Shown piece after piece: positions 4,863 through 51,969 of a stretch of DNA of 64,000 nt. Position numbers and translations under genes: made by a program. The notes under the pieces were generated by a model, which ran no database searches, was not told the origin of the DNA, and saw only the letters and a program-made list of their open reading frames with translations. The stretch is from Spirochaetia bacterium (GTDB lineage Bacteria; Spirochaetota; Spirochaetia; WTKD01; G963693115): positions 258,251-322,250 of the forward strand of contig CBDDCA010000006.1 of assembly GCA_965226055.1 (NCBI GenBank), read 5' to 3'. Positions within the stretch are counted from its first letter, which is position 1, and each line of letters opens with the position of its first letter.

Positions 4863-5033
4863 ATATGTGTTGTAAAATTGGATAAAGGAGGCAGGGTTAG
4901 TCTAATTTTGCTTATATCCATGCCAACCCCATATTATATTTTCGCCTATACAGTTATAATTTTTAGCATTTCTGCTTATCTCTTAAAAGAGAAAAGCAGA
5001 AACATGTGTATATGCATTAACAATGCATGAGAA

Positions 5034-5993
5034 TTACTGTAATGGGTATAGTAGCTTTTGCACTTCGGGAGTATCGATATTTTCAAGGCTTACATACGTA
5101 GCACCTGTATCGATTCTTGGATTTACGCTTTTTCCTTGTAGAGCATCGTATACTGACATAACGCCTTTATATCCCATTTGAAATGGATTTTGTACAACAA
5201 AGCCATTAATAACTCCACTTTGAAGCAAAGCTATTTCTTGCTCACTAGAATCAAATCCAACAAGAATAATATCCTCTCTTCCAATTTCCTGCAATCCTAA
5301 TGCCGCTCCTACCGCAGAACCTTCGTTTGCTGCAAAAATAGCTTTAAGATCTGGATTAGCTCGTACCATATCAACGATAAGATTAGCAGATTTATCATGA
5401 TCTCCTGCACCGTACACTGGCTCAAGAACAGTTATACCAGAATACTTTTTTAATTCCTGTAAAGCTCCATCTCTTCTGTCTATCCCTGTAGAACTAGTTG
5501 CATCATGAACAATAACGCCTACTTTTCCTTCTTCACCAATAAGAGTAGCAAGCTCTTTTGCTCCTATCGCTGCAGCATTTGCATTATCAGTAGCAACAAA
5601 ACTCAATGGAATGTCACTATCTACTCCAGAATCAAACATAACTACTGGAATACCTGCTGTATTTGCTTTTTCCACATACGGAATAAGAGCTTCCTTATCT
5701 AAAGCAGCAAGCAACAGACCATCAACTCTTGATGTAATAGCATTTTCTACCATATTGATTTGTACATCAATCATTGATTCGGTAGCAGGCCCCTCAAAAG
5801 TAACTCTAATGCCAAGTTCTTCTGCCGCAGTATCAGCTCCCAGCTTTACTGTTTGCCAAAATTCATGCTGAAACCCTTTACTGATAACAGCAATATATGT
5901 GTCATCATCAGACACAGACTCTTGATTTCCACCAGCAAAAAGCATACCAGTGAACACCAACAATAAAATAGTTGAAATAATGATTTTTTTCAT
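5034..5993 (-). CDS. Sugar ABC transporter periplasmic substrate-binding protein (ribose/galactose-type PBP)
   Basis: Signal peptide, then a type I periplasmic binding fold (VISKGFQHEFWQ..., GIPVVMFDSG). Last gene of the ATPase-permease-SBP operon. Confidence 0.85.
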   Translation of the reverse strand: MKKIIISTILLLVFTGMLFAGGNQESVSDDDTYIAVISKGFQHEFWQTVKLGADTAAEELGIRVTFEGPATESMIDVQINMVENAITSRVDGLLLAALDKEALIPYVEKANTAGIPVVMFDSGVDSDIPLSFVATDNANAAAIGAKELATLIGEEGKVGVIVHDATSSTGIDRRDGALQELKKYSGITVLEPVYGAGDHDKSANLIVDMVRANPDLKAIFAANEGSAVGAALGLQEIGREDIILVGFDSSEQEIALLQSGVINGFVVQNPFQMGYKGVMSVYDALQGKSVNPRIDTGATYVSLENIDTPEVQKLLYPLQ

Positions 5994-7026: not shown

Positions 7027-8547
7027 CTAATTTTCATGTTGCATATGACCAGTAGCATATAACATAATTTTTTCCTGTGTAATATCTTGTTTTTCTAATA
7101 TACCTGATACTTCTCCCGAACACATTACCAATACTCTATCACTCATCCCAACAATTTCACTTAAATCTGAAGATACCATTATGATAGAAAGCCCAGTATC
7201 AGTTAAAGAAGTAATAAGATCGTATATTTCACGTCTTGCTCCAACATCAATACCTCTTGTAGGCTCATCAAAAATCAAAACATCGCATTGCGTACACAAC
7301 CACCGAGCAATAATCACTTTTTGCTGATTTCCTCCACTTAAATAGCGTACAATCTGAGTTAAAGAAGGAGTTTTTATACGTAAAGAATCTACAAATTCTG
7401 TACAATGCTCTCTTGCAATATTTTTGTTAATGATCCCTATCTTTTTAGAATGTTCCTTTATGGTAGCAAGGATTATGTTTTCTTGTACATTGAGATTAAG
7501 AGCAAGTCCATTTTTTTTCCTATCTTCAGTCAGATATCCAATACCATGCCTTATTGCATCACGCGGAGTATTGATAGCAACTTCTTTAGAATGAACAAAT
7601 ACTTTACCACTATCCTTCGGATCTGCACCAAAGATAGCTCTCATTAACTCAGTACGACCAGCTCCCACTAAACCAGACACTCCTAGTATTTCTCCCTTAC
7701 ACAAAGAGAACGATATATTCTTTAAGTCAGGATTACGCTGTATATTTTCTACACGCAAAATTTCCTCTCCTCTATGAGGATGCCTCGTAGGAAACATATC
7801 AGTAAGCTCTCTTCCTACCATAAGATGTATAAGATGTTCAGTAGTAGTATCCGCATAGTGCAAAGTATCAATATACTGACCATCTCGAAATACAGTTACT
7901 CTGTCCGCAATTTCTTCCAGCTCCTTCAATTTATGAGAGATAAAAATAATTCCTTTTCCTTGCTCTTTTAGTCTACGTACTGTACTAAACAATACTTCTG
8001 TTTCTGCTTCACTTAATGTTGCTGTTGGCTCATCCATAATGAGAATATCACAAGACACTGAGATAGCTTTAGCAATCTCTACCATTTGCTGTTCTGCAAC
8101 ACTTAAAGTACTTACTTTTGCATATACATCAATACTATAATTAAGTAACTGCAATATTCTATTTGCTTCTTCATTTAATTTTTTCTCATTAAGCACATAC
8201 CGAGCATAGCGTGGTTCTCTCCCAATAAATATATTTTGTGCAACAGTAAGATGGGAGAAAAGATTGAATTCTTGATGAATAATACTAATACCAATTTCCT
8301 GTGCTACATGAGGATTAAGCACTTCAATTTTCTTACCACGATATATAATATCTCCTTTATCTGGTTGATATACTCCAGTAAGAATTTTCATAAGAGTAGA
8401 TTTGCCTGCCCCATTTTCACCTAAAATAGCATGTACTTCCCCTGCCTTTACATCTAAAGACACATTTTGCAACGCCTTTACTCCAGGAAAAAATTTAGAT
8501 ACATCTTGTACCTTCAACAGCATATCGCTTTTATTTTGTGCCATCAT
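7027..8547 (-). CDS. Sugar ABC transporter ATP-binding protein with duplicated ATPase (RbsA/MglA-like)
   Basis: Two nucleotide-binding domains: Walker A motifs GENGAGKST and GLVGAGRT, LSGG signatures and Walker B motifs. Confidence 0.9.
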   Translation of the reverse strand: MMAQNKSDMLLKVQDVSKFFPGVKALQNVSLDVKAGEVHAILGENGAGKSTLMKILTGVYQPDKGDIIYRGKKIEVLNPHVAQEIGISIIHQEFNLFSHLTVAQNIFIGREPRYARYVLNEKKLNEEANRILQLLNYSIDVYAKVSTLSVAEQQMVEIAKAISVSCDILIMDEPTATLSEAETEVLFSTVRRLKEQGKGIIFISHKLKELEEIADRVTVFRDGQYIDTLHYADTTTEHLIHLMVGRELTDMFPTRHPHRGEEILRVENIQRNPDLKNISFSLCKGEILGVSGLVGAGRTELMRAIFGADPKDSGKVFVHSKEVAINTPRDAIRHGIGYLTEDRKKNGLALNLNVQENIILATIKEHSKKIGIINKNIAREHCTEFVDSLRIKTPSLTQIVRYLSGGNQQKVIIARWLCTQCDVLIFDEPTRGIDVGARREIYDLITSLTDTGLSIIMVSSDLSEIVGMSDRVLVMCSGEVSGILEKQDITQEKIMLYATGHMQHEN

Positions 8548-8649
8548 TCATACCTACATACATTATCTCAAGAATACTAAATGAATTACTCTTTTTACAA
8601 TGTTTTAATATAAAAATGCACTGCAAAACAAAGAATATCCTTCCTAATA

Positions 8650-9642
8650 CTATTTACTTGTGTATTTTATAGAAACCCATATCCGAAACGAACTACTTTT
8701 TCCGTTATATTTACCACTTCCTTGAAAGCTAATTGTATACAATTTCTGTAATAGCTTCCCTTTTGCTTTACCACTTATTGTACCAGAGCTAGTATCAAAA
8801 CCTAATCCTGTCTCATCGTTAATATCAGGAGAAATAGCATAGCGACCAGATATATCACTGGGATTTGCATCAAAACTCACCGATATATCAGTATCTTTGT
8901 CAGCAATAGCCATAATGAACGGTAAGCCATTATACGGTTCTATGGTAACAGCATCATTCCCGCTTGGAGTAAATACATAGCTCCAGCCAGGAAGTTTTAC
9001 ACTCGTAACACCTGAATTATCAAATATACCTTCTACTCTAATAGTATCTTGTATATCCCATTCCTCTAAATCATGCTTAAACCCAGTGGCTCCCTTAAAC
9101 ATATTAATCATATTATTGATAGTATTGTTTACTTTCCACGTTGATATATCTTGATTAAACTGTGTCGCTCCTGCAAACATACTGTTCATATTTTTCACTT
9201 TCTCTACTTTCCACACTGATATGTCTTGATCAAACTGTGTTGCTCCTGCAAACATACCACTCATATCGGTAACATTACTGACATTCCAGCTTGATATATC
9301 TCCATTAAAATGAGTATTTCCCTTAAACATATTGCTCATATCGGTAACATTACTGACATTCCAGCTCGATATATCTCCATTAAAATTAGCTAAATCTCCA
9401 TCACTACTAAATAAACCACTCAAATCTGTCATATTACTTATATCTATATTTGAGAGATCTGTTTCCCATCCATGAAATGAAACTTCACGTTTTATATTAT
9501 TAGCTAGTACTTGTTTATCCGATGGATGATAGACAAAAGACAAGTCTGTAGATTCCTGACTACAACTAAAAAGCAGTAGCAATCCCATTCCTATCATCCA
9601 TAGAAAATAATACTTATATGCTTGAGCATTACATTGTCTCAT
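8650..9642 (-). CDS. DUF285-repeat lipoprotein, single-module paralog of the 2822-aa protein
   Basis: Lipobox LLFSC. Tandem ~25-aa DISxWNVSNVTDMSxMF repeats (PF03382-like), then a C-terminal GLGFDTSSGTISG Ig-like segment. The N- and C-termini align with the first module of ORF 10605-19073. Confidence 0.75.
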   Translation of the reverse strand: MRQCNAQAYKYYFLWMIGMGLLLLFSCSQESTDLSFVYHPSDKQVLANNIKREVSFHGWETDLSNIDISNMTDLSGLFSSDGDLANFNGDISSWNVSNVTDMSNMFKGNTHFNGDISSWNVSNVTDMSGMFAGATQFDQDISVWKVEKVKNMNSMFAGATQFNQDISTWKVNNTINNMINMFKGATGFKHDLEEWDIQDTIRVEGIFDNSGVTSVKLPGWSYVFTPSGNDAVTIEPYNGLPFIMAIADKDTDISVSFDANPSDISGRYAISPDINDETGLGFDTSSGTISGKAKGKLLQKLYTISFQGSGKYNGKSSSFRIWVSIKYTSK

Positions 9643-9786
9643 AACTATTACACCAAATATACATTGATTACTACAGCTTGTACTTTAACTATAATTATTT
9701 TTACTAAATCTTACAGAGTAAAAAAACAATATGCTATTATTATACACTATATTAAAAAAATATGCAAAAATAGGTAATAAGTTGCC

Positions 9787-9826
9787 ACGAGTTCAAGTAT
9801 TAAATGTGACAAAGGAGCAAAAAAAG
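9787..9826 (+). repeat. Solo copy of the IS30-element left inverted repeat
   Basis: Reads ccacgagttcaagtattaaatgtgacaaaggagcaaaaaaag, matching the IRL of the IS30-family element at 54786. Confidence 0.5.
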
Positions 9827-9930
9827 CGAAAATATAAAAAATACTGAATGTATCTCTTGCCTTTATTTCTTGAATTTGTAGCAGCTATCTTTTCTGTATA
9901 ACTGTGAGTAAGGTATTTTATAAGTGGCAA

Positions 9931-10536
9931 TTATATTCTACTGAATAAGATACTGAACAAAATACCAAATCCTGACAACATGATAGTCATTTGAATTCCA
10001 AAAAACCAGTACATAATAGTACTGTTTGTTTTTATCGATTCTTTCATAGATTTTATTTCTGTTGTCAAATTTTCCCGTACACTATTTATTTCTGTTGTCA
10101 AATTTTCCCGTACACTGCTTATCTCTGTTGTTAAGTTCTCCCGTATGCTGTTTATTTCTGTTGTTAAGTTCTCCCGTACACTGTTTATTTCTGTTGTTAA
10201 TTTCTTCTCTACACTGTTTATTTCTGTTGTCAAATTTTCCCGTACACTGCTTATCTCTGTTGTCAAATTCTCTCGTACGCTGTTTATTTCTGTTGTCAAA
10301 TTTTCCCGTACACTATTTATTTCTATTGTCAAATTTTCCCGTACACTGCTTATCTCTGCTGTTAAGTTCTCCCGTACACTGCTTATCTCTGCTGTTAAGT
10401 TCTCCCGTACGCTGTTTATTTCTGTTGTTAATTTCTTCTCTACACTGTTTATTTTTTCTAATAAAAAATCATATTGTGTAATTGGAGTTGCAAGCATTCC
10501 ATCTTCATTTGTAATTTTCTCTTGTACTGCTCTCAT
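9931..10536 (-). CDS. Tail-anchored coiled-coil protein with ~13 tandem 11-residue (hendecad) repeats
   Basis: Repeats of (T/A)EI(N/S)SVRENLT have hydrophobic residues at positions 1, 4 and 8 of each 11-mer. Single C-terminal TM segment (IMYWFFGIQMTIMLSGFGILFSILF). Confidence 0.55.
   Translation of the reverse strand: MRAVQEKITNEDGMLATPITQYDFLLEKINSVEKKLTTEINSVRENLTAEISSVRENLTAEISSVRENLTIEINSVRENLTTEINSVRENLTTEISSVRENLTTEINSVEKKLTTEINSVRENLTTEINSIRENLTTEISSVRENLTTEINSVRENLTTEIKSMKESIKTNSTIMYWFFGIQMTIMLSGFGILFSILFSRI
10047..10447. repeat. About 12 x 33-bp tandem repeat (VNTR) inside CDS 9931-10536
   Basis: Contiguous 33-bp units with a few substitutions each (ttatttctgttgtcaaattttcccgtacactat). 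No spacers, so it is not a CRISPR array. Confidence 0.85.
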
Positions 10537-10604: not shown

Positions 10605-13600
10605 CTAGCGACAATTCCCCGCTGGAAGACACCATCCAGGCAAGTTTTTTACAGCTGTACCCTTAAACATATCTGTTTTTATCACACTGTTTGCTACATT
10701 CCAGTTACTCAAATTCTGATTAAAAACACTAGCATCAGCAAACATACTGCTCATATCGGTAACATTACTTACATTCCAATTCCCTATATCTTGATTAAAA
10801 ACATCAGCATCATAAAACATATACCTCATATTGGCAACATTACTTACATTCCAATTCCCTATATCCTGATTAAAAGCTTCAGCATCATAAAACATACTGT
10901 TCATATTGGTAACTTTACCTACATTCCATTTTGATATATCTCCATTGAAAAATTCTGTTTGATTAAACATATTGCTCATATCGGTAACTTTACTTACATT
11001 CCATAACGATACATCTCCATTAAAGTATTGTTTATCATAAAATAGCCCTCCCATGTCTGTTATGTTACTTGTATCTATCATGTTTAAGTTAGGGGCAAAT
11101 CCTTGTGCTTTTATCTCTGCTTCTATGGCTTCCTCTAACTTTTTTTTGTTTTGAGGAGTGTACTTGTATTCTATCGTAACTGATATTGTTTTTGATCTAC
11201 TGGCATCAGTATATGTATGTATTGCTTTCCCATCGCTCTTTTTACTGGTAAACTCTATAGTATAGGTCTTTGAAGCTGCTTTGGTAGGAGTACCTGATAT
11301 CTTCCCAGTATCAGCATCAAAGCTCAACCCTGTATCTGCTGTTATATCCGGACTTATACTAAAAATTCCTGCTATAGCGGGTGTTTTAGTAAGTGTTACT
11401 TCTTTATCTTTCGTTAATGGTACTCCTACATATGCCTTTACACTACCTCCTATACTAGCTCTACTTGCACTTATATTAAAATACCATGTAGGGAGTATTA
11501 CTACAGCTGTATGCTCAAACATATTTGTTTTACTCACAGTTTTATCCACATTCCATGTTTCAAGTTCTTTATTAAATACACTTGCTCCCTTAAACATATT
11601 GCTCATATCGGTAACTTTACTGACATTCCACCCTGTTATATCTTGATTAAACTTACTTGCATTAATAAACATACTACGCATATCGGTAACTTTACTGACA
11701 TTCCACCCTGTTATATCTTGATTAAACTCACTTGCCTTAAAAAACATACTGCTCATATTGGTAACGCTACTGACATTCCATCTTGATATATTTCCATTAA
11801 AATTAACTTCACTGGAAAATAGACTACTCATATCTTTTATTTTACTTGTATCTATCATAGTGAGATCGGGGGTATTTCCTTGTACAGTTATCTCTGTATT
11901 TATAGCCTGCTGTAATTCTGCTTTATTATTAGGAATATGCTTATACTCTTTAATAGTAACTAACACTTTTATAGTCCGCCTATCATCAATATATTTATGT
12001 ATGAGTGTTTTATCAGCCTCTTCACTTCTAAACTGTATGGTATACTCAGTCTGTGAAGTTACTGTGGTGGGAGTACCTGATATTATGCCAGTACTAGTAT
12101 CAAAGTTCAACCCTGTATTTGTTGTTATATTTGGACTTATACTAAAACTCCCTGTTATAACGGGCGTTTTGGTAAGTATTATTTTTTGACTGTCTAGGAG
12201 TGATAAATCTCTATAGACACTTATAGTAGTACTATTTGCACTTATACTAAAATACCATGTAGGCAACTTTTTTACTGCTGAAGCAAGAAACATATCTGTT
12301 TTTGTCACACCGCTATCTACATTCCAACTTTCAAGATCTTGGTTAAATGCATTTGCGTTATTAAACATAAAAAACATATTCGTAACACTACTGACATTCC
12401 AATTTGATATATCCCCATTAAATTTTTGTGCTCCTGCAAATATACTGCTCATATTGGTAACTTTACTTACATCCCATTTCGATACATTTCCATTAAAATG
12501 ATCTTTACTGGAAAATATATTACTCATATCTGTTATAGCACTCGTATCTATTATGTTTAGATTAGCGGTATTTCCTTGTGCATTTATCTCATCATCTACA
12601 GCCTTCTGTAATTCTGTTTTATCACTGGGCGTATACTTATACTGACTTATAGTTACATGTATCTCTATTGTCCGATCAGTATATGTATGTATTGTTTTCC
12701 CATTCTTTTCACTGGTAAACTGTATAGTATACTTAGTTTGTGAAGCTAATATAGTGGGAGTACCCGATATTGAGCCAGTGTTAGTATCAAAGTTCAACCC
12801 TGTATTTGTTGTTATATTTGGACTTATACTAAAACTCCCTGTTACATTAGACGTTTTAGTGAGTGTTATTGTTTCAGTGTTACTTAGCGATAAATCTTTG
12901 TATCCAGTTATAGTAGTTCTGTTTGCATTTATACTAAAATACCATGTAGGCAACTTCTTTACTACTGTACTTTCAAACATATTTGTTTTTATTACACTGC
13001 TTTTTACATTCCAGTTTTCCAGATTTGCACTAAACTTTGATGCAAAATTGAACATAGTTTCCATATTTGTAACTTTACTTACAGTCCAATTTTTTATATC
13101 TTGGTTAAAGCTTTGTGCAGATAGAAACATAGCTCTCATATTTATAACTTTACTTACAGTCCAATTTTTTATATCTTGGTTAAAGGCATGTGCTCCAGCA
13201 AATAAACTCTCCATATTTGTAACAGCACTTACATTCCATCCTGATATATCTCCATTAAATTTATTCGCATTCAAAAACATATTGCTCATATTTGTAACTT
13301 TACTTACATTCCATTTTGATATATCTCCATTGAAATTAGCTTTATCCTCAAATAGATTACTCATATCTGTTATAACACTTGTGTCTATTATGTTGAGATT
13401 AGCAGTATCTCCTTGTGCAGCTATCTCATCATCTACAGCTTTCTGTAACTCTGTTTTATTACTAGGAGTATGCTTATAACTTGTGGTAACTGATATTTTT
13501 ATTGTTCTATCAGTATATTTATGTGTCGCTGGATTACCTTTACTATCAGTAAAGCTACTGGTAAACTCTATAGTATAATCAGTCTTTGAAGCTGCTTTAG

Positions 13601-16600
13601 TAGGAGTTCCTGATATTGTGCCAGTGCTAGTATTAAAATCTAACCCTGTATTTACTGTTATATCTGGACTTATACTAAAACTTCCTGTTATATCAGGCGT
13701 TTTGGTAAAAGTTATTTCTTTATTTTTTGCAAGTGGAACATTTACATATGTATTTATACTACGATTACTTGCACTTATATTAAAATACCATGTAGGCAAC
13801 TTTGCTACTGCGGTATTCTTAAACATATCTGTTTTTGTCACACCACTTGCTACATTCCAGCTTTCAAGATCTTTTTCAAATGCATTTGCTCCACTGAGCA
13901 TACTACTCATATTGGTGACAGCATTTACATCCCATTCGGATATATCTCCATTGAAAGTAATATTATCCTTAAATAGATCACTCATATCTGTTATTTTACT
14001 TGTATCTATTATGTTGAGATTAGCTTCGTTTCCTTGTACATTTATCTCTGTAGTTATAGCTTGCTTTAATTCTGTTTTATTATTAGGAGTATGCTTATAC
14101 CTACGTATCTCTACCGATATTTTTATTGTCCTATCAGTATCAATATATTTATGTATTACTGTTCCATCTGTCTTTTTACTTGTAAACTGTATGGTATATT
14201 CAGTCTTTGAGATTGCTGTAAGAGGAGTACCCGATATTTTACCAGTGCTAGGATCAAAATCTAAACCTGTATTTTTTGCTATATCTGGACTAACGCTAAA
14301 ACTTCCTGTTATATTAGGTGTTTTGGTAAGGGTTATTTCTTTATCTGTTGCTAATGGTATGTTTTTATATGCAATTATCTTATTATCACTTGCACTTATG
14401 CTAAAATACCATGTAGGCAACTTTGCTACTGCGGTATTCTTAAATATATCTGTTTTTGTCACAGTCCCATCGCTTGCTACATTCCAATCTTCCAGATCTT
14501 GGTTAAATTTTGTCGCTCCCAAGAACATCTTGCCTATATCGGTAACGCTACTTATATTCCAGCTTGATATATCTTGATTAAACGCTGCCGCTGACGAAAA
14601 CATCTGATGCATATTCGTAACTTTTCCTACCTTCCAATTTGATATATCTTTATTAAAAATGGTTGCTCCCGAAAACATAGCTGTCATATTTGTAACTTTT
14701 CTTACATCCCAGCCCGACATATTGCTATTAAAATTTGCTGCTCCTAAAAACATTCGATTCATATCCGTAACTGCCCCTACATTCCACCCCGATATATCTT
14801 TATTGAAACTGGTTGCTCCCGAAAACATATTCCCCATATCATTCACATTTTGTACCTTCCAATTTGATATATCTTGATTAAAACTTGTCGCATTCCAAAA
14901 CATACCATTCATGTTAGTAACACTTTGTACCTTCCAGTTTGATATATCTTGATTAAAACTACCTGCATAATAAAACATACTGCTCATATCAATAACATTA
15001 CTTACATTCCAACCAGAAATATCCCCATTAAATGCAGCAGCTTGATTAAACATATGACTCATATCAGTAACATTACTTACATCCCACTCAGATATTTTAC
15101 CATTAAAAGTAGTATTACTATTAAATAATCCACTCATATCATCAATCTTACTAGTATCAATTATATTTAAGTCAGCAGTATTTCCTTGTAATCCTATCTC
15201 AGTATTTATATTGTTTATTAATTCTAATTTACCAGTAGGAGTATACTTATGCCCTATAGTAACTGTTATCGTTATTGTCCTATCAGTATAGGCATATATT
15301 GTTTTCCCATTCTTTTCACTGGTAAACTGTATGGTGTAAGGAGTTTTTGAAGCTACCTTTGTAGGAGTACCCGATATTGTCCCAGAGCTAGAATCAAAAC
15401 TCAAGCCTGTATTTGTTGTGATACTTGGACTTATACTAAAACTTCCTGCTATACTAGGTGTTTTGGTAACTTTTATTTCTTCACTTGCTCCTAATTTTAT
15501 ACGTGCTTGCCCTGTCAGAGCAGACTTATTTGCACTTATACTAAAATACCATGTAGGTAACTTTGCTACTGCGGTATTCTTAAACATATCTGTTTTTGTC
15601 ACAGTCCCATCGCTTGCCACCTTCCAGCTTTCAAGATCTTTGTCAAATGCACTTGCTCCTAAAAACATGCTACTCATATCAGCAACCTTGCTTACATTCC
15701 ATCCCGATACATTTTGATTGAAACTTGTTGCTCCTGAAAACATATTACTCATATCGGTAACGCTACTTACATCCCATCCCGATATATCTCCATTGAAATT
15801 AGCTTTATTCTCAAATATATTACTCATATCTGTTATATTACTTGTATTTATTATGTTTAAGTTAGCAGTATTTCCTTGTACTTCTATCTCCTTTTTTATG
15901 TTTTCCAATAACTCTGTTTTGTTGTTAGGAGTATAAAGATAAGTATTTATTGCTACTGATAGAGTGATGGATCTAGTATCGACATAAGTATATGTCGCTG
16001 GATTACCTGAGCTATCAGTAAAGCTACTGGTAAACTGTATGGTGTAAGAAGTTTGTGAAGCTGCCTCGGTAGGAGTACCCGATATTGTGCCAGTTCTAGT
16101 ATCAAAATCTAACCCTGTATTTGCTTTGATATCTGGACTTATACTGAAACTTCCTGCTATAAGGGGTGTCCTTGTCAGTATTATATCTGTTATTGGTACT
16201 TTTACTCCCTCATGTATACTATTGCTGCTTGCGCTTATACTAAAATACCATGTAGGTAATTTTGCTACTGCAGTATTCGTAAACATATTTGTTTTTGTCT
16301 TAAGGCTTGCTATATTCCAGTTTTCAATATCTCCATTAAATTTTATCGCCCCACTCAACATATTTTCCATATCAGTGACTTTACTTACATTCCACTCGGA
16401 TATATTTCCATTGAAAGTAGTGTTATCCTTAAATAGATCACTCATATCTGTTATGTTACTTGTATCTATTATGTTGAGATTAGCAGTATTTCCTTGTGCA
16501 TTTATCTCTGTAGTTATAGCTTGCTTTAATTCTGCTATATTATTGGGAGTATGCTTATATTTATGTATCTCTACTGATATTGTTATTGTTCTATCAGTAT

Positions 16601-19073
16601 AGGTATGTGTTGCTAAAGCACCTGTACTACCAGTAAAGCTACTGGTAAACTGTATGGTGTAAGAAGTTTGTGAAACTGCTTTGGTAGGAGTGCCTGATAT
16701 TGTCCCAGTGCTAGTATTAAAACTCAACCCTGTATTTGCTGTTATATCTGGACTAATACTAAAATTTCCTGCTATATCAGGCGTTTTGCTAAGGGTTATT
16801 TCTTCATTTTTTGCTAGCGGTATTCCTCTATATACATCTATACTAGCACTATTTGACTTTATGCTAAAATACCATGTAGGTAATTTTGCTACTGCGGTAT
16901 TCTTAAATATATCTGTTTTTGTCACAGCGATTGCTACATTCCAGCCTTCAAGATCTTGTGTAAACTTAGAAGCACCAGAAAACATGCTACTCATATTGGT
17001 AACCTTGCTTACATTCCATCCCGACACATTTTGATTGAAACTTGTTGCTCCTAAAAACATACTGCTCATATCGGCAACTTTACTTACATTCCATCCCGAT
17101 ACATTTTGATTGAAACTTGTTGCTCCTAAAAACATACTGCTCATATCGGTAACTTTACTTACATTCCATTTCGATATGTCTCCATTAAAACTTGTTGCTC
17201 CTGAAAACATACTGCTCATATCGGTAACTTTACTTACATTCCATTTCGATATATCTCCATTGAAAGTAGTGTTATCCTTAAATAGCCTACTCATATCTGT
17301 TATAAGACTCGTATTTATTATGTTTAGATTAGCAGTATTTCCTTGCAATCCTACCTCTGTTTTTATAGCTTCCAATAATTCTGCTTTATTTTTTGGCTTA
17401 TACTCTATAGTGAGCAATATTTCTATTGTCCTATCAGTATCAGTATAGGTATGTATTTCTGTCCTATCAGAGGAGGTACTTGTAAATGTTATAATATACT
17501 CAGTCTCTGAGGCTACCTTTGTAGGAGTACCTGATATTGTGCCAGTACTAGTATCAAAACTCAACCCTATACTCGTTATATCTGGCTTTATACCAAATTT
17601 TCCTGTTATATCAGGCGTTTTGCTAAGAGTTATTTTTTCATTATCTGCTAGTGATACCCCTTTATATACAGTGAGCTCATCAACATTAGCACTTATGCTA
17701 AAATACCATGTAGGCAATTTTGCTACTGCGGTATTTGTAAACATATCTTTTTTTGTCACAGTGCTTGCTACATTCCAGCCTTCAAGATCTTTATCAAATG
17801 CACTTGCTCCTGAAAACATACCATCCATATCTGTAATATTACTTACCTTCCACTTTGATATGTCTCCATTGAAACTTGTTGCTCCTGCAAACATATTACT
17901 CATATCGGTAACATTGCTTACATCCCACAATGATATATCTCTATTAAAGGTAGTGTCATCCTTAAATAGATCATGCATATCTTTTACAGCACTTGTATTT
18001 ATATAGTTAAAATTATCTACATCAGTATTTTTAATTGCTTCTATTAATTCGTTACGTGTTTTTACTATAGCAGTAAACACCGATACATATATAGAGAACT
18101 GGCTAGACTTTCCTAAGTAACTTCCATCCCCTGTAAAACGAATTGTATATTTTCTTCGTATACCATTTTCTTTATCCTTCAATAACCTTATTGCAGTGCC
18201 ATATATTTCTCCATTATTGTCCTTCATCTCCAATCCTGTATCTTCCGTAAGAGTTGTCGTTTTTCCATCAGTACTATTAAATTCAATACTCCATGTACCA
18301 GTAATTCCTGGAGGGCTTGTTGCAATATTGATTGGCATTAAAGGAACATTCAAGCTCGACTTGATTAACTGTTCATTATCATACCTATCTGTGATAGAGT
18401 TTCCATCACGCACAAGAGTAAATACATAATGCCAACTAGGAATACTTGTTGCAGGTACATTAGCTCCCTTAAATATATCTTGTATATTTACTGAATCTGC
18501 TACCTGCCATTTCTCTAAATCATACTGAAACACTGTTGCTTTATTAAACATGTTACTCATATCGGTAACCTTGCTCACATTCCAGCCTGATATATCTTGA
18601 TTAAAACTTGCTGCGGCTTCAAACATGTTACTCATATCGGTAACCTTGCTCACATTCCAGCCTGATATATTTTGATTAAAACTCGTTGCTCCCTTAAACA
18701 GATTACTCATATTAGTAACATTACTTACATTCCAGCCTGATATATTTCCATTAAAGGTAGTATTTCCTTCAAACATACTGCTCATATCAGTAATATTGCT
18801 TACATCCCAACTTGATATATCACCTGAAAAATTGGAAAATTCACCATCACCTTTGAATAAGCCGCTTATATCTTTTACTTTACTTGTATCTATAGTAGAG
18901 AGATCTGCTGCATTTCCGCGGGAGGCAATTTCTCGCTTAATGTTTTCAATAAGCGATTCTCTACTATCAGGAGAGTAAATAAAGTCTAAACTTAAAGATT
19001 TTTCTGGATCACAACCAGATACCAAAAAAGCGAAACATAAAAATAGCCAAAATATAAAAAATTGATACTTCAT
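10605..19073 (-). CDS. Giant modular surface lipoprotein (2822 aa) of reiterated DUF285-repeat and Ig-like (He_PIG-like) modules
   Basis: Signal peptide with lipobox LVSGC. About 8 modules of ~330 aa, each built from several DISxWNVSxVTxMSxMF repeats, then AVAKLPTWYFSI, then GLSFDTSTGTISGTPT. Confidence 0.85.
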   Translation of the reverse strand: MKYQFFIFWLFLCFAFLVSGCDPEKSLSLDFIYSPDSRESLIENIKREIASRGNAADLSTIDTSKVKDISGLFKGDGEFSNFSGDISSWDVSNITDMSSMFEGNTTFNGNISGWNVSNVTNMSNLFKGATSFNQNISGWNVSKVTDMSNMFEAAASFNQDISGWNVSKVTDMSNMFNKATVFQYDLEKWQVADSVNIQDIFKGANVPATSIPSWHYVFTLVRDGNSITDRYDNEQLIKSSLNVPLMPINIATSPPGITGTWSIEFNSTDGKTTTLTEDTGLEMKDNNGEIYGTAIRLLKDKENGIRRKYTIRFTGDGSYLGKSSQFSIYVSVFTAIVKTRNELIEAIKNTDVDNFNYINTSAVKDMHDLFKDDTTFNRDISLWDVSNVTDMSNMFAGATSFNGDISKWKVSNITDMDGMFSGASAFDKDLEGWNVASTVTKKDMFTNTAVAKLPTWYFSISANVDELTVYKGVSLADNEKITLSKTPDITGKFGIKPDITSIGLSFDTSTGTISGTPTKVASETEYIITFTSTSSDRTEIHTYTDTDRTIEILLTIEYKPKNKAELLEAIKTEVGLQGNTANLNIINTSLITDMSRLFKDNTTFNGDISKWNVSKVTDMSSMFSGATSFNGDISKWNVSKVTDMSSMFLGATSFNQNVSGWNVSKVADMSSMFLGATSFNQNVSGWNVSKVTNMSSMFSGASKFTQDLEGWNVAIAVTKTDIFKNTAVAKLPTWYFSIKSNSASIDVYRGIPLAKNEEITLSKTPDIAGNFSISPDITANTGLSFNTSTGTISGTPTKAVSQTSYTIQFTSSFTGSTGALATHTYTDRTITISVEIHKYKHTPNNIAELKQAITTEINAQGNTANLNIIDTSNITDMSDLFKDNTTFNGNISEWNVSKVTDMENMLSGAIKFNGDIENWNIASLKTKTNMFTNTAVAKLPTWYFSISASSNSIHEGVKVPITDIILTRTPLIAGSFSISPDIKANTGLDFDTRTGTISGTPTEAASQTSYTIQFTSSFTDSSGNPATYTYVDTRSITLSVAINTYLYTPNNKTELLENIKKEIEVQGNTANLNIINTSNITDMSNIFENKANFNGDISGWDVSSVTDMSNMFSGATSFNQNVSGWNVSKVADMSSMFLGASAFDKDLESWKVASDGTVTKTDMFKNTAVAKLPTWYFSISANKSALTGQARIKLGASEEIKVTKTPSIAGSFSISPSITTNTGLSFDSSSGTISGTPTKVASKTPYTIQFTSEKNGKTIYAYTDRTITITVTIGHKYTPTGKLELINNINTEIGLQGNTADLNIIDTSKIDDMSGLFNSNTTFNGKISEWDVSNVTDMSHMFNQAAAFNGDISGWNVSNVIDMSSMFYYAGSFNQDISNWKVQSVTNMNGMFWNATSFNQDISNWKVQNVNDMGNMFSGATSFNKDISGWNVGAVTDMNRMFLGAANFNSNMSGWDVRKVTNMTAMFSGATIFNKDISNWKVGKVTNMHQMFSSAAAFNQDISSWNISSVTDIGKMFLGATKFNQDLEDWNVASDGTVTKTDIFKNTAVAKLPTWYFSISASDNKIIAYKNIPLATDKEITLTKTPNITGSFSVSPDIAKNTGLDFDPSTGKISGTPLTAISKTEYTIQFTSKKTDGTVIHKYIDTDRTIKISVEIRRYKHTPNNKTELKQAITTEINVQGNEANLNIIDTSKITDMSDLFKDNITFNGDISEWDVNAVTNMSSMLSGANAFEKDLESWNVASGVTKTDMFKNTAVAKLPTWYFNISASNRSINTYVNVPLAKNKEITFTKTPDITGSFSISPDITVNTGLDFNTSTGTISGTPTKAASKTDYTIEFTSSFTDSKGNPATHKYTDRTIKISVTTSYKHTPSNKTELQKAVDDEIAAQGDTANLNIIDTSVITDMSNLFEDKANFNGDISKWNVSKVTNMSNMFLNANKFNGDISGWNVSAVTNMESLFAGAHAFNQDIKNWTVSKVINMRAMFLSAQSFNQDIKNWTVSKVTNMETMFNFASKFSANLENWNVKSSVIKTNMFESTVVKKLPTWYFSINANRTTITGYKDLSLSNTETITLTKTSNVTGSFSISPNITTNTGLNFDTNTGSISGTPTILASQTKYTIQFTSEKNGKTIHTYTDRTIEIHVTISQYKYTPSDKTELQKAVDDEINAQGNTANLNIIDTSAITDMSNIFSSKDHFNGNVSKWDVSKVTNMSSIFAGAQKFNGDISNWNVSSVTNMFFMFNNANAFNQDLESWNVDSGVTKTDMFLASAVKKLPTWYFSISANSTTISVYRDLSLLDSQKIILTKTPVITGSFSISPNITTNTGLNFDTSTGIISGTPTTVTSQTEYTIQFRSEEADKTLIHKYIDDRRTIKVLVTIKEYKHIPNNKAELQQAINTEITVQGNTPDLTMIDTSKIKDMSSLFSSEVNFNGNISRWNVSSVTNMSSMFFKASEFNQDITGWNVSKVTDMRSMFINASKFNQDITGWNVSKVTDMSNMFKGASVFNKELETWNVDKTVSKTNMFEHTAVVILPTWYFNISASRASIGGSVKAYVGVPLTKDKEVTLTKTPAIAGIFSISPDITADTGLSFDADTGKISGTPTKAASKTYTIEFTSKKSDGKAIHTYTDASRSKTISVTIEYKYTPQNKKKLEEAIEAEIKAQGFAPNLNMIDTSNITDMGGLFYDKQYFNGDVSLWNVSKVTDMSNMFNQTEFFNGDISKWNVGKVTNMNSMFYDAEAFNQDIGNWNVSNVANMRYMFYDADVFNQDIGNWNVSNVTDMSSMFADASVFNQNLSNWNVANSVIKTDMFKGTAVKNLPGWCLPAGNCR

Positions 19074-42087: not shown

Positions 42088-43044
42088 TCATATTGGTATC
42101 TTAATCCATGCTTGAGGCACATCTGTATCATTGATACTGTATCCTTCTTTTTCTTTAGAACTAATATACGGTAAAATTACTATCTTATCTTTATTTGTAT
42201 TAAGCCATGCTCCCCACCAACTAAATGTACTACTTGCAATTATTTGATGCTTACATTTACTTAGCAAATATAAATCTTCATGTCCTTTTGAAAGTGAATT
42301 TCCGTCCATAATAGTAAAGGATATATGAGAGAAACGATGAGCTTGCCTTTTAACCCATGCAGGATCATCACTAAAGAAAAAATAATGTGGATGCTGTAAT
42401 TTTTTCTGCATAATATGTATTGCAGCAAGATAATAATCTATACCTACCAAATTGCCTATAGTAACAACATCTGTCCTACGAATATGAACTCCCACTGATT
42501 GCTTTTTACTCAATATGATGTTTTCGTATTTTAAAGAATAGCTGCCAAGTGGATTACGAAGGGTACATTGCTGAAGAATATCACTTCGATACTCTTCAAA
42601 AAATGTATGACATTGAAACCAACCATCAAGGTACACATTATTCCCCAGACGAAATAAAGATTGTACATACTCATCTGGATACCCATATTTAACATGATGA
42701 TTATTAAACGTTTTCAAACAATATATCTTTGTAAGATACCGTTTAAGAAATAATGCTACTTTCATAGGAACATTCATTTTCCTTATAAGAGATAATAAAG
42801 CATGCACTCTCCTATAATATTTGTAAGAAGGTATTAGTAAGCAACCATATTGAGCAATAATATTATATTCATCAAGAAAAAGAATACGAGCTTTTATACT
42901 GTTACCAGCAGAATCTTTCACAAAATAATCATAATCTAAAAAATCAAGAACAACATAGGTATTATTTTTTCTTGCTAAGGCATAGGCTGTAGCGTATTGA
43001 AATAACTGATTACCAAGTCTCCCTTGTACTTTAACAGCTATCAT
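42088..43044 (-). CDS. Glycosyltransferase family 11 (alpha-1,2-fucosyltransferase-like)
   Basis: The N-terminal MIAVKVQGRLGNQLFQYATAYALA is the GT11 signature. Its start overlaps the 3' end of the upstream gene (43031-43044). Confidence 0.8.
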   Translation of the reverse strand: MIAVKVQGRLGNQLFQYATAYALARKNNTYVVLDFLDYDYFVKDSAGNSIKARILFLDEYNIIAQYGCLLIPSYKYYRRVHALLSLIRKMNVPMKVALFLKRYLTKIYCLKTFNNHHVKYGYPDEYVQSLFRLGNNVYLDGWFQCHTFFEEYRSDILQQCTLRNPLGSYSLKYENIILSKKQSVGVHIRRTDVVTIGNLVGIDYYLAAIHIMQKKLQHPHYFFFSDDPAWVKRQAHRFSHISFTIMDGNSLSKGHEDLYLLSKCKHQIIASSTFSWWGAWLNTNKDKIVILPYISSKEKEGYSINDTDVPQAWIKIPI

Positions 43045-43990
43045 ATCTTATACCATATTTATCCCTTCCATTGAGGACGTACCCCCCCCCCCCCAATTTC
43101 CACAGCATGCCTTTTACAATATTCTTAAAAGATTGATATAACGAAGGTTTCATTTTTTTCTGTAATAATTTCTCTGGTAAAAAATATTGATGAAAATAAA
43201 ACCATACATCAAAAGGATGAGGAGGATCAATCATATGAAAATATTCGGGATATCCAATGGCAAGACGAGCATATATATTTTGTTCTACTCCAATAAATGT
43301 ACCATGAGAAGACATGTTATCCTTCAATGTATAGTAAAGATTATGTATTTTTAAGAGAATAGAGCTATGAATAAGAAATAAGCCTCCAACATGTTCTCTT
43401 GTTCGCAAGGTCAATGTAGCTATATTTTCTTTCTCCTTCGCATATTGTTGAACATCAAACCTTTGTTCTGTTTTTGTCATTACTACTTTATGGGGAGACA
43501 TAGTAGTTACTTTTTCTACATCAGGCCACTGTCTAATTTCTCTTGGTTTCAAATCGTAATCATACCTACGCTTTCTTCCTCTAAACGCTCCAATATCCAT
43601 CCACATAAACCACTGCGACCGAAACACATTTAACTCATACGCTTCTTTTACAAAATGTAATTTTTCGTTCCATATAATATACAGCTCAGGATCATGTATA
43701 TCTTTTTCTTTATTTTTTGCATGATGTTCTTGATACAATGCATAATGAGCATACTCATGAAGCTGATGAAATTCTTTTATAATAACAACAGTATTTTCTT
43801 GATACTTTTTCCTTAATCGTAAAAAATAGGGAGCATGCTCTTTATCAGTAAATATAACGAGCGGGAGTTTCATATTACAGAGAAAATTTTTTATCCACTG
43901 TTTATACATATCATCACTATGTTTTGATTTCTTAAGACGATAATATGCAGTCACTATTGTGAGACTATTCTTAACAATACTTTCCTCCAA
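43031..43990 (-). CDS. Putative polysaccharide/LPS biosynthesis protein (HtrL/YibB-like, tentative), tandem copy 1, with a G13 tract near its 3' end
   Basis: Reads IVTAYYRLKKSKH...WFMWMDIGAFRG. The poly-G at 43082-43094 (coding strand) encodes GGGG and sets the frame of the 16-aa tail. Confidence 0.55.
   Translation of the reverse strand: MEESIVKNSLTIVTAYYRLKKSKHSDDMYKQWIKNFLCNMKLPLVIFTDKEHAPYFLRLRKKYQENTVVIIKEFHQLHEYAHYALYQEHHAKNKEKDIHDPELYIIWNEKLHFVKEAYELNVFRSQWFMWMDIGAFRGRKRRYDYDLKPREIRQWPDVEKVTTMSPHKVVMTKTEQRFDVQQYAKEKENIATLTLRTREHVGGLFLIHSSILLKIHNLYYTLKDNMSSHGTFIGVEQNIYARLAIGYPEYFHMIDPPHPFDVWFYFHQYFLPEKLLQKKMKPSLYQSFKNIVKGMLWKLGGGGYVLNGRDKYGIRYDSC
43082..43094 (-). repeat. Homopolymeric G13 (C13 on the + strand) inside the CDS
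   Basis: Counted directly. Its paralogous position in copy 2 holds 14 residues. Confidence 0.9.
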
Positions 43991-44039
43991 ACACTAGTAC
44001 AAGTATATCATACTAGTACTATTTTTATTTAAGTCAACA

Positions 44040-44078
44040 ATAACGATCACGAGTTCAAGGAGTAACTGCGACAAAGGA
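44040..44078 (+). repeat. Solo IS30-type left-IR copy at the junction of the tandem gene duplication
   Basis: Reads cacgagttcaaggagtaactgcgacaaaggagcaaaaaac. Confidence 0.5.
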
Positions 44079-44114
44079 GCAAAAAACATACTGTTACCTA
44101 ATTTATGTGATCTA

Positions 44115-45119
44115 TCAAAAATAAGACAAGATGCCATTAGTATACAACAAAAATTCTATTTTATAAGCAAACTCTCTTTCCTTCCTTATTATTATTCCAT
44201 TGGGGTGTACCCCCCCCCCCCCCAATTTCCACAGCATGCCTTTTACAATATTCTTAAAAGATTGATACAACGAAGGCTTTATTTTTTTCTGTAATAATTT
44301 CTCTGGTAAAAAATATTGATGAAAATAAAACCATACATCAAAAGCATGAGAAGGATCAATCATATGAAAATATTCAGGATATCCAATGGCAAGACGAGCA
44401 TATATATTTTGGTCTACTCCAATAAATGTACCATGAGAAAACATATTATCCTTCAATGTATAATAAAGATTATGTATTTTTAAGAGAATAGAGCTATGAA
44501 TAAGAAATAAGCCTCCAACATGTTCTCTTGTTCGCAAGGTCAATGTAGCTATATTTTCTTTCTCTTTCGCATATTGTTGAACATCAAACTCTTCCTCTGT
44601 TTTTATCATTACTGCTTTATGGGGAGACATAGTAGTTACTTTTTCTACATCAGGCCACTGTCTAATTTCTCTTGGTTTCAAATCGTAATCATACCTACGC
44701 TTTCTTCCTCTAAACGCTCCAATATCCATCCACATAAACCACTGCGACCGAAACACATTTAACTCATACGCTTCTTTTACAAAATGTAATTTTTCGTTCC
44801 ATATAATATACAGCTCAGGATCATGTATATCTTTTTGTATATCTTTTGCATGATGTTCTTGATACAATGCATAATGAGCATACTCATGAAGCTGATGAAA
44901 TTCTTTTATAATAACAACAGTATTTTCTTGATACTTTTTCCTTAATCGTAAAAAATAGGGAGCATGCTCTTTATCAGTAAATATAACGAGCGGGAGTTTC
45001 ATATTACAGAGAAAATTTTTTATCCACTGTTTATACATATCATCACTATGTTTTGATTTCTTAAGACGATAATATGCAGTCACTATTGTGAGACTATTCT
45101 TAGCAATACTTTCCTCCAA
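44115..45119 (-). CDS. Putative polysaccharide/LPS biosynthesis protein (HtrL/YibB-like, tentative), tandem copy 2, with a G14 tract
   Basis: More than 95% identical to copy 1 up to the poly-G. The 14-G tract gives a different 31-aa C-terminal tail. Confidence 0.55.
   Translation of the reverse strand: MEESIAKNSLTIVTAYYRLKKSKHSDDMYKQWIKNFLCNMKLPLVIFTDKEHAPYFLRLRKKYQENTVVIIKEFHQLHEYAHYALYQEHHAKDIQKDIHDPELYIIWNEKLHFVKEAYELNVFRSQWFMWMDIGAFRGRKRRYDYDLKPREIRQWPDVEKVTTMSPHKAVMIKTEEEFDVQQYAKEKENIATLTLRTREHVGGLFLIHSSILLKIHNLYYTLKDNMFSHGTFIGVDQNIYARLAIGYPEYFHMIDPSHAFDVWFYFHQYFLPEKLLQKKIKPSLYQSFKNIVKGMLWKLGGGGVHPNGIIIRKEREFAYKIEFLLYTNGILSYF
44210..44223 (-). repeat. Homopolymeric G14 (C14 on the + strand) inside the CDS
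   Basis: Counted directly. Confidence 0.9.
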
Positions 45120-45224
45120 ACACTAGTACAAGTATATCATACTAGTACTATTTTTATTTAAGTCAACAATAACGATACTATACCAATAGCCCAAAATTAT
45201 AAGGGCTATTGATATATGCAAGTA

Positions 45225-49835: not shown

Positions 49836-50699
49836 TTAATGAGAGATACTATTAACTTTTAAACTATCTTTGAAAAATAATATTTCTTTTCCATTCTTAG
49901 TTTTATTAGCAAAATGTTTTAGAATAAAAGGTTTTCTATTTTTTACCCAAGAAAAATTTTCATTTATTTCCTCTTTATCATCATAAGAAACAATCCAAGA
50001 AAATTTTTTAATATTTTTAATTTTTTCACTTAAGATTTTATGCTGATCTTGTTTATAAAAGTTTAAGTATAAATCTTTTCCTTTATTAAAATAGGGAGGA
50101 TCAAAATAAAATATTGTCTGCTTATTTTTTTCTTCTTTTTGAATTTTATCAATTAGTTCTAAAACATCTAGATTATGCAGAGTTATTTGTTCTTTATACC
50201 TTGCTATTAATTTGATTTTTTTTATTATTGTATCTTTATTGAATCTACAATTTAATTTATATTTTCCTTTTTGTTTTAAGCCTCCAATAGGACCTCCTTT
50301 TAAAATTCCTGAAAAATTTGCCCTATTTAAAAATAATGTAGAAAAGCCTACCTCTAATGATGAAAAATTTTGTATCTCTTTTTGTATTTCTTTTTGTTTT
50401 TTCCAATTTTCTATACTTATTTCTGTATCATGTATGAGTGTGCATAACTCATCAGTTTTATTCAAAACACAATACCAAAAAGAATAAATAGATTTGTCTA
50501 AATCATTTAAAGTTATTTTTTTAAATTTATTTTCTAATAAAAGATATAAACCAACTGAAGCTCCTCCACAAAAAGGCTCTACATAATGATCATTTATTTT
50601 ATTATCAGTGCAAATTTGAGAAATAAATTTTGAAAGCCTATTCTTTCCTCCTGGATATCTTAATGGTGAATAAAATTTATTTTTAATCATTTTTACCAT
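49836..50699 (-). CDS. Dam-family (D12 class, alpha) N6-adenine DNA methyltransferase
   Basis: LRYPGGK, EPFCGGASV and DPPYF motifs. Very AT-rich coding sequence. Overlaps the upstream gene by 17 bp. Confidence 0.8.
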   Translation of the reverse strand: MVKMIKNKFYSPLRYPGGKNRLSKFISQICTDNKINDHYVEPFCGGASVGLYLLLENKFKKITLNDLDKSIYSFWYCVLNKTDELCTLIHDTEISIENWKKQKEIQKEIQNFSSLEVGFSTLFLNRANFSGILKGGPIGGLKQKGKYKLNCRFNKDTIIKKIKLIARYKEQITLHNLDVLELIDKIQKEEKNKQTIFYFDPPYFNKGKDLYLNFYKQDQHKILSEKIKNIKKFSWIVSYDDKEEINENFSWVKNRKPFILKHFANKTKNGKEILFFKDSLKVNSISH

Positions 50700-51969
50700 A
50701 GTAATGCTTTAATATTTTCCCTACAATTTTAGAACACTGTAAAATATTTGTTTTATCATATTCAATATTTGCGTGAGCATATTTTGCTAATAACGATTCA
50801 AAATCAGAATTTTTTTTCAAAATGTCTGTGCCAATACTATTGAAATTTAATTCTTTTTGATCTAACATATCAGATGCTTTAATTTCTTTCATAAATTCTC
50901 CAAAAACAGCATCATCACTTGCTCGTTTATCTCCCTCATTTTCAAAATATTTTCTTCCAGCAGCCTCCATTATTAGTCTCAAAGACATACCTATAATAGG
51001 TAAGATATTTTTATCTCTTTTAAATGTTTCATAAATTTCATCTAGTATACTATACAAATCATTAACTTTTCCTTTTTTTAGTTCTAATTTTTCTCCAAAT
51101 AAAGTATCTACGATTGCTTTATCTCTAGGAGTTTTTCTTAGTTTTTTTTGTAAATTATTATCTTTTATCACATTCTTGCTACTCTGTTCTGTAAAATTTC
51201 TAATATTTAATTCTTTATCATCAATTAAAGGTTTTATTGATCCTCTATTTTTTCTTGTACTTATTTGTTTACTTTGAATCAATTGTATTAATTTTTCAAA
51301 AATTAATTGTAATTTTTCATCCTTTTCATATGAAGGATAAACACTCTCTAATTTATTATTTGAATCAAAATAAAAACCTAATTTGTAAAAATTATCTACA
51401 GTCAAAATTTCTGTTTTAATAAAATTTTGATCTAGTGCTTTATAATTCTCACTTATTAAATGTGTTGCTTCTTCAATTTTTAAAAATAAACTTTTTTCCT
51501 TTTTCAAATGATAATGATCAAAATAATCTTGTTGTAAAGCAGACCAAGTATTATTTCTTATATTATCTGCTTGTATAATTGTTAATGCTGTTTTCTCATT
51601 ACATAAAACACAAGAAATTTCTTTTAAGTTTACTAAATTTTTTGGTGGACTAGATGGAAATAATTTTTTTTCTATTACAACAGACCATTGTGGATTTTGT
51701 AAATATTTTAATACTACTATTCTTTTATTACCATCATAAACAATATGTTTTTTATTTTTAAAAACAACAATTGGTAATTTATTAAGATGATAGAAATCTC
51801 CCATTTCTTCAATTAGCTTTGGAATATTCCATTTATCTCTATCATCCTTTATGGCTTTTTTTATTATTTCTAAATCTCCAATATCTTCTCCAATTGGATC
51901 TCTTGGATTTTCAGTCCATAAATGTAATTCCGATATTTTTATCTCTTTGATTTTTTGATCATCACCCAT
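50683..51969 (-). CDS. ParB/Srx-superfamily (DGQHR/DUF262-like) nuclease-domain protein with an uncharacterised ~300-aa C-terminal region
   Basis: N-terminal ISELHLWTENPRDP (ParB NPR box) and VYDGNKRIVVL (a DG..R motif). AT-rich and translationally coupled to the methyltransferase. Confidence 0.55.
   Translation of the reverse strand: MGDDQKIKEIKISELHLWTENPRDPIGEDIGDLEIIKKAIKDDRDKWNIPKLIEEMGDFYHLNKLPIVVFKNKKHIVYDGNKRIVVLKYLQNPQWSVVIEKKLFPSSPPKNLVNLKEISCVLCNEKTALTIIQADNIRNNTWSALQQDYFDHYHLKKEKSLFLKIEEATHLISENYKALDQNFIKTEILTVDNFYKLGFYFDSNNKLESVYPSYEKDEKLQLIFEKLIQLIQSKQISTRKNRGSIKPLIDDKELNIRNFTEQSSKNVIKDNNLQKKLRKTPRDKAIVDTLFGEKLELKKGKVNDLYSILDEIYETFKRDKNILPIIGMSLRLIMEAAGRKYFENEGDKRASDDAVFGEFMKEIKASDMLDQKELNFNSIGTDILKKNSDFESLLAKYAHANIEYDKTNILQCSKIVGKILKHYYGKND

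Follow-up and report, generated by a model that had tools for sequence, protein, structure and literature searches.

Analysis of a 64,000-nt stretch of a metagenome-assembled genome (MAG) of an uncultured Spirochaetia bacterium (GCA_965226055.1, contig CBDDCA010000006.1, positions 258,251 to 322,250; here called the window) revealed a tandem pair of HtrL/YibB-family genes, htrL copy 1 and htrL copy 2, which each carry a long poly-G tract close to the stop codon (G13 in copy 1 and G14 in copy 2). The genes belong to a fucosylated surface-glycan locus, in which copy 1 is followed by fucT, a gene encoding a GT11-family fucosyltransferase. The interpretation that we favor, with an estimated probability of about 0.55, is that these are recently evolved, slippage-prone tracts at the extreme 3' ends of the tandem htrL genes, where a change of +/-1 nt exchanges one C-terminal tail for another (C-terminal phase variation). 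Positions refer to window numbering; both htrL copies and fucT lie on the minus strand, and the plus strand shows the tracts as C-runs.

Poly-G tracts at the 3' ends of the htrL genes

The window has a G+C content of 34.7%. Searching it for G/C runs longer than 6 nt returned only the two htrL tracts and a third run, G15, which is located outside the duplicated locus (Table 1). Approximately 3.7e-5 runs of at least 13 nt are expected from base composition, which indicates that the tracts are not due to chance. Both htrL tracts exceed the length at which G/C runs were regarded as hypermutable (about 8 nt or more). A preliminary description of this DNA had listed them as C13 and C14 on the plus strand together with the tails that follow, and direct reading of the sequence and its open reading frames (ORFs) reproduced positions, lengths, and tails exactly. 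Between the start codon and the tract, 21 of 896 nt differ between the copies (97.7% identity, where more than 95% had been described), as do 13 amino acids; the ratio of nonsynonymous to synonymous substitution rates (dN/dS) is ~0.45.

Comparison with 34 database homologs revealed that the conserved HtrL_YibB region ends at the motif WFYFHQYF and that most of the homologs (245-270 aa) end within a few residues of it. A ~30-residue extension, LPEKLLQKKMKPSLYQSFKNIVKGMLWKL (LPEKLL...MLWKL), is confined to the closest relatives. This extension is predicted to be helical, with a predicted local distance difference test (pLDDT) score of ~60, and the hydrophobic (amphipathic) moment of the protein peaks at residues 276-299. 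The G-run comes after the extension helix, and no homolog has residues matching the post-tract tails. Both tracts lie ~30 codons beyond the last conserved residue; in copy 2, the tract starts at the third base of a Leu codon.

Tract lengths from G10 to G17 were enumerated in silico for both htrL copies. The resulting proteins had total lengths of 308-335 aa and ended 5-31 residues past the run. In copy 1, the GGGG encoded by the run is followed by a tail of 16 aa at the observed G13 and of 7 or 10 aa in the other frames; in copy 2, the tail comprises 31 aa at the observed G14 and 5 or 15 aa otherwise. No frame loses any conserved residue, and the premature termination that characterizes an on/off contingency locus occurred in none of them. 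The homopolymers lie at the 3' end and the alternative frames alter only residues after ~303, which is the layout of C-terminal phase variation.

The preliminary description had the two copies continuing in different frames after the run, which proved incorrect. The distance from AAATT, which precedes the tract, to the shared CAATGGAA is 21 nt in both copies, made up of G13 plus TACGTCCT in copy 1 and of G14 plus TACACCC in copy 2. The extra G of copy 2 is balanced by a 1-nt deletion a few bases downstream, so that CAATGGAA is read as AAT GGA (Asn-Gly) in both copies. The difference between the tails stems from divergence of the DNA beyond CAATGGAA and not from the frame. Copy 1 continues into the real fucT, while copy 2 contains the ancestral TAATAATAA, read as Ile-Ile-Ile, and then a degenerate remnant of the fucT 5' end. 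The earlier statement that tract length sets alternative C-terminal tails thus holds for the enumerated frames but does not account for the difference between the two observed tails.

Origin of the tracts

The nearest relative is the MAG Spirochaetia bacterium OZ244590.1, a 2.36-Mb chromosome. Its HtrL is 84% identical to the window proteins, and the flanking GT11 and DUF4340 products are ~94% identical to those of the window. The locus is fully syntenic (ABC transporter, DUF4340, htrL, GT11, E2, E1, WD40) and contains one htrL copy. At the position of the tract, the relative has GGAGGGAGAG, within TTGGAGGGAGAGACGCCCTCAATGGAATAATAATAA, and its protein ends in ..LEGETPSME followed by the stop. 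The distance from AAATT to CAATGGAA is 17 nt in this MAG, with the reading TCA ATG GAA TAA. Relative to this ancestral frame, both window copies are at +1; the ancestral frame is regained at G12 or G15 in copy 1 (..TSSMEGINMV, then stop) and at G13 or G16 in copy 2 (..YTPME, then stop). The presence of GGAGGGAGAG in the single-copy relative indicates that the tract arose recently, from a purine-rich decamer. Either the tract is older than the duplication or gene conversion carried it from one copy to the other. The related loci L001 to L004 were free of G/C runs of at least 7 nt.

Tandem duplication was also observed in relatives. In a more distant related MAG (locus L003), fucT and not htrL is tandemly duplicated, with two GT11 genes that are 92.8% identical at the nucleotide level (7991-8946 and 9043-9998). 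The same locus contains a 1.9-kb perfect duplication (9-1899 and 3339-5229) of a cytidylyltransferase-like gene and a 299-aa gene without assigned function. These repeated duplications indicate that the glycan island is duplication-prone.

Family and predicted fold of the HtrL-like proteins

The Pfam profile HtrL_YibB (PF09612; gathering cut-off, 24.1 bits) matched copy 1 with 30.4 bits and copy 2 with 28.8 bits, which places both proteins in the family, and it was present in 31 of the 34 homologs. An alignment of 28 sequences showed that the motifs TIVTAYY, IWNEK, WxDIG, GKDQ, and WFY are common to the window copies and the homologs, with invariant or near-invariant columns at Y104, I106, W107, K110, W130, D132, G134, G234, and Q237. 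Scores against the equivalog models of Escherichia coli YibB were far under the cut-offs (44.9 versus 264.9 bits for TIGR02192 and 26.3 versus 342 bits for NF008462), indicating that the proteins are distant family members and not YibB orthologs.

An AlphaFold model of copy 1 (pLDDT, 86; predicted template modeling score, 0.84) has a confident core, helices at residues 273-299 with a pLDDT of ~60, and residues 301-319 below 50. The predicted structure has a Rossmann-like GT-A glycosyltransferase fold, and the HtrL-like proteins are regarded as putative glycosyltransferases with predicted sugar-transfer activity. The family profile gave no significant match when searched against PDB sequences, and the fold assignment therefore depended on the predicted structure. 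The preliminary description had tentatively named this family and proposed an HHpred-type check; the Pfam profile together with the predicted structure settled the assignment, as distant HtrL_YibB members.

A literature search gave no characterized HtrL/YibB member. Published HtrL/YibB proteins are uncharacterized parts of lipooligosaccharide (LOS) or lipopolysaccharide loci, including the LOS locus of Campylobacter jejuni (PMC4172580). The 532-aa database protein P0034 is a natural fusion of an N-terminal GT11 and a C-terminal HtrL_YibB region, which supports a shared pathway for GT11 and HtrL_YibB enzymes.

Organization of the duplicated locus

The period of the duplicated unit is 1129 bp, and identity between the copies begins ~57 nt 5' of the TTG start (44047 and 45176). 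The remnant of fucT behind copy 2 indicates that the duplicated segment reached from the promoter into the fucT start. An assembly artefact was rejected as the source of the duplication because the copies differ at 21 sites and their flanks differ as well. The coordinates of the features are listed in Table 1.

TABLE 1 Features of the htrL-fucT locus and of the third poly-G tract
Feature	Position	Strand	Basis or remark
GT11 fucosyltransferase gene fucT, ATG at 43044	42088..43044	-	Profile match
htrL copy 1, HtrL/YibB-family putative glycosyltransferase, 319 aa at G13	43031..43990	-	Conserved domain end ~43181
C-terminus of htrL copy 1: amphipathic helix at residues ~273-299, then disordered tail		-	Structure model
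Poly-G tract 1, G13 on coding strand, 37 nt 5' of fucT ATG	43082..43094	- (C13 on +)	
Promoter-like TTGACT-16 nt-TAGTAT, 5' of copy 1	44010..44037	-	Consensus scan
htrL copy 2, HtrL/YibB-family putative glycosyltransferase, 334 aa at G14	44115..45119	-	Conserved domain end ~44310
Degenerate remnant of fucT 5' end, downstream of copy 2	44154..44177	-	Alignment with L001 and copy 1
Poly-G tract 2, G14 on coding strand	44210..44223	- (C14 on +)	
Promoter-like TTGACT-16 nt-TAGTAT, 5' of copy 2, inside duplicated unit	45139..45166	-	Consensus scan; identical to that of copy 1
Third tract, G15, codons 14-18 of a ~1600-aa FN3 plus DUF285/PARCEL surface lipoprotein gene	56138..56152	+	Outside duplicated locus

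The fucT product matched GT11 with an E value of 3.8e-25. No promoter was predicted for the gene itself, which probably shares a transcript with copy 1; a scan found no terminator-like site at the htrL-fucT locus. A fucT promoter spanning the tract was considered and rejected, since a consensus scan of the coding strand from the tract to fucT revealed no promoter. A switch in mRNA structure at the htrL-fucT junction was likewise rejected because predicted folding was unchanged from G10 to G17.

The HtrL-like genes have no ATG 5' of the sequence for the nearly invariant TIVTAYY strand (43975-43990 and 45104-45119). Their start is the TTG (43990 and 45119) or, 12 nt downstream, an in-frame ATT that follows a GGAGG by 5 nt. 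The database calls P0001, P0002, and P0035 begin at an internal ATG (MKLPLVIF) and thereby drop ~39 conserved residues, including the N-terminal strand.

The third poly-G tract and other features of the window

The lipoprotein gene with the third tract begins with an ATG at 56099, preceded by AAGGAG, in an ORF that extends to 60906. The tract is positioned 13 codons into the gene, in the region coding for the signal peptide. Translation at G15 meets a stop 13 codons further on, whereas lengths of G13 or G16 keep the gene in frame through a signal peptide bearing the lipobox LVGC. In OZ244590.1 (locus L005, 9930-9944), the orthologous gene also carries G15, between identical flanks, and is likewise out of frame. 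Two species share this layout, which is canonical for contingency loci, and the lipoprotein G15 is a stronger candidate for classical phase variation than either htrL tract. A G15 that is one base short in two MAGs could equally result from systematic homopolymer miscalling. The OZ244590.1 ortholog is in addition split into ORFs of 724 aa and 876 aa by a 1-nt insertion (ATAGTTAGCAGG versus ATAGCAGCAGG in the window; L005 ~12160-12175), and is either a pseudogene or the product of an assembly indel error. An IS30-like transposase gene (HTH_38 plus rve) at 54892-55857 lies directly upstream of the tract-bearing gene.

The flanks of the three tracts are alike, AAAT(T/C)-Gn-TAC(A/G)(C/T) (43077-43099, 44205-44228, and 56133-56157), and the htrL site of the relative reads AAATT-GGAGGGAGAG-ACGCC. 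This likeness may be coincidence or may reflect short-patch copying from tract to tract.

At 49836-51969, a gene for a D12-class N6-adenine DNA methyltransferase overlaps a 428-aa ORF without a Pfam match, beside ABC transporter genes; the two possibly form a restriction-modification pair. In the relative, a DUF4468 gene occupies this position. Further large surface-protein genes rich in repeats are located at 1791-4043, 8650-9642, and 10605-19073. Among them are one with 360-nt FN3-type repeats (6 copies) and ORFs of 330 aa and 2822 aa with many 75-nt DUF285/PARCEL-type repeats. No Rfam RNA family was found in the window. Approximately half of 40 gene starts examined had no detectable Shine-Dalgarno pairing, and several had TATAAT-like boxes near the ATG, which hints at frequent Shine-Dalgarno-independent or short-leader initiation in the organism.

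Discussion

Replication slippage by +/-1 nt at the htrL tracts would exchange one short, unstructured C-terminal tail for another. The enzyme would be kept in all frames because the tracts sit past the catalytic domain and the amphipathic helix, and this position points to an exchange of tails only and not to an on/off switch. The identity of the tail may have some importance; enzyme function is probably little affected, and translation of the downstream fucosyltransferase gene may be influenced secondarily. In view of the third tract in the lipoprotein gene, the lineage appears to use poly-G switches.

Several observations weigh against this interpretation. Tract slippage is something that we infer from a species represented on one contig. 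The species was found once in a collection of 15 billion proteins; exact look-ups of the proteins of the window returned no indexed contig, a scan of the genome collection returned one related MAG (OZ244590.1) and no further one, and neither of two metagenome scans, with patterns covering the htrL tract and the lipoprotein tract, gave a match. The preliminary description had taken the difference of 13 versus 14 as direct proof of slippage, which a single MAG contig does not allow, as the difference could lie within the +/-1 consensus error for 13- to 14-mers. It is weak evidence of slippage and the sole hint of length heterogeneity. The related records bear contig tags such as ctg26443_14x_c and ctg143019_6.49x_l (coverage, 6-14x), which appear to denote modest-coverage long-read assemblies, where +/-1 errors in 13- to 15-mers are common; the MAG of the window is probably long-read as well. 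Both copies are in the same non-ancestral frame, which could be due to chance (1 in 3) or to selection for that frame, the latter not being predicted by a model in which the tail is indifferent. RNA polymerase slippage on such long runs could blur phases set at the DNA level. Finally, neither the tail nor the HtrL/YibB proteins have an assigned function.

Much of the same evidence bears on a neutral origin, which we consider unlikely. According to this explanation, drift turned the purine-rich GGAGGGAGAG into pure G, the run expanded within a tail that is dispensable, and 13 versus 14 is a miscall in a low-coverage MAG. The ancestral sequence is indeed G-rich, the tail is dispensable judging from both conservation and the structure model, the tags of the related records indicate low coverage, and the lipoprotein tract, which at G15 lacks one base to be in frame in two independent MAGs, would fit systematic miscalling. 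However, long runs of G are not otherwise seen in the 64 kb, at 35% G+C, and both paralogs keep uninterrupted tracts despite 21 substitutions elsewhere. This is beyond usual drift, although gene conversion could explain it. Classical translational phase variation, in which tract length turns the HtrL-like enzymes on and off as in Campylobacter, Haemophilus, and Neisseria, is already disfavored and highly improbable. It would agree with a length of 13-14 nt, which is typical of contingency loci, with the surface-glycan locus, and with the classical layout of the nearby lipoprotein gene. Yet no frame truncates the protein, the tract follows both the last conserved residue and the extension shared by the relatives, and the tail region is predicted to be disordered. 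The likeness to classic phase-variable glycosyltransferases drawn in the preliminary description is therefore lost: those tracts switch the enzyme off, whereas here every frame retains the conserved domain.

The copy 1 tract might instead chiefly tune fucT, its frame setting the htrL stop relative to the fucT start and hence termination-reinitiation coupling and the level of fucosylation. We judge this to be quite unlikely. As had been described, the frame of the copy 1 tail does decide whether htrL overlaps fucT: the stop lies 14 nt past the fucT ATG at G13, 14 nt before it in the G14 frame, and 3 nt before it, in the frame of fucT, in the G12/G15 frame, so that only the G13 frame gives an overlap (14 nt). 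The junction has neither a Shine-Dalgarno sequence at functional spacing from fucT nor, by the scans described above, a promoter-like site or terminator. Furthermore, HtrL and GT11 are functionally linked, being adjacent in the related loci L001 (identical to L002) and L003 and fused in P0034, and the Helicobacter pylori GT11 gene futC is itself phase-variable by a poly-C tract (PMC2806470). On the other hand, the absence of a Shine-Dalgarno sequence says little where about half of the genes of the window lack one, and all three htrL stop positions fall in the plausible range for reinitiation. Folding of the htrL-fucT junction from G10 to G17 gave the same mRNA structure with a constant start accessibility of 0.38-0.40. 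The copy 2 tract is equally long, yet no start lies within 100 nt downstream of it, and in the tract-less relative OZ244590.1 the htrL stop lies 18 nt upstream of fucT. From the translational coupling proposed in the preliminary description, the frame-dependent shift of the stop is retained. More doubtful still is that the 3'-terminal poly-G acts as a frame-dependent switch on fucT, giving a heritable, reversible change in surface fucosylation with neither enzyme gene inactivated.

C-terminal phase variation, the interpretation favored here, is a known class that has already been described in Helicobacter canadensis, where 3'-terminal tracts of G11-G14 are present in eight genes, rfbB among them (Snyder et al. 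2010, PMC2823697). As at the htrL locus, the poly-G tracts of H. canadensis (11-14 nt, several in glycan or surface clusters, e.g., rfbB with G14) lie at the 3' end and leave all three frames near full length; from frame to frame, a few to about 20 residues at the C-terminus change (PMC2823697). In contrast to the htrL locus, which is known from one consensus, length variation in H. canadensis was seen in sequencing reads (PMC2823697). The window locus differs further in its spirochete host, in the tandem HtrL/YibB-family pair, and in one tract whose length also places the stop before or past the next gene's start.

In H. pylori, the genes futA, futB, and futC undergo poly-C phase variation with tracts of C14-C16, and futC encodes a GT11 enzyme (PMC2806470). 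The window locus shares with these genes a long G/C homopolymer at a fucosyltransferase locus and a GT11 gene. In H. pylori the tract is inside the fucosyltransferase coding sequence and acts on/off, whereas here the run is in the tail of the preceding gene; fucT itself has no G/C run longer than 6 nt and no A/T run of at least 8 nt, and thus no internal tract of the H. pylori type. C. jejuni has a low-G+C genome in which rare long poly-G runs are gathered in surface-glycan genes (LOS, capsule, and flagellar glycosylation), mostly inside the gene body, where they cause premature termination. The window resembles C. jejuni in its low G+C content and its rare long poly-G at surface-glycan genes and differs in that the htrL tracts lie at the 3' ends of the genes.

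Among spirochetes, tens of G/C homopolymer tracts in treponeme genomes, those of cultivable treponemes included, have been reported to undergo slipped-strand mispairing (PMC8049484). The earlier remark that such tracts are little documented in treponemes consequently applies to glycosyltransferase tails only. The poly-G tracts of Treponema pallidum tpr and outer membrane protein genes are located in promoters and act on transcription (PMC8049484, referring to Giacani et al. 2007), unlike the window tracts, which are in glycosyltransferase tails; the organism is not shown to be a Treponema.

For annotation, these results call for caution, because a homopolymer length that a MAG consensus fixes unreliably determines both the tails and the apparent overlap of the ORF with fucT. 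If coupling to fucT were true, it would mean varying host-glycan mimicry in a host-associated spirochete. If the tracts slip, this spirochete would join Campylobacter, Helicobacter, and Neisseria as an organism with poly-G repeats around surface-glycan and surface-protein genes. The htrL pair would then be a clear-cut natural case of the C-terminal class, which has received little study and which leaves the enzyme intact while its tail or the translation of the next gene varies.

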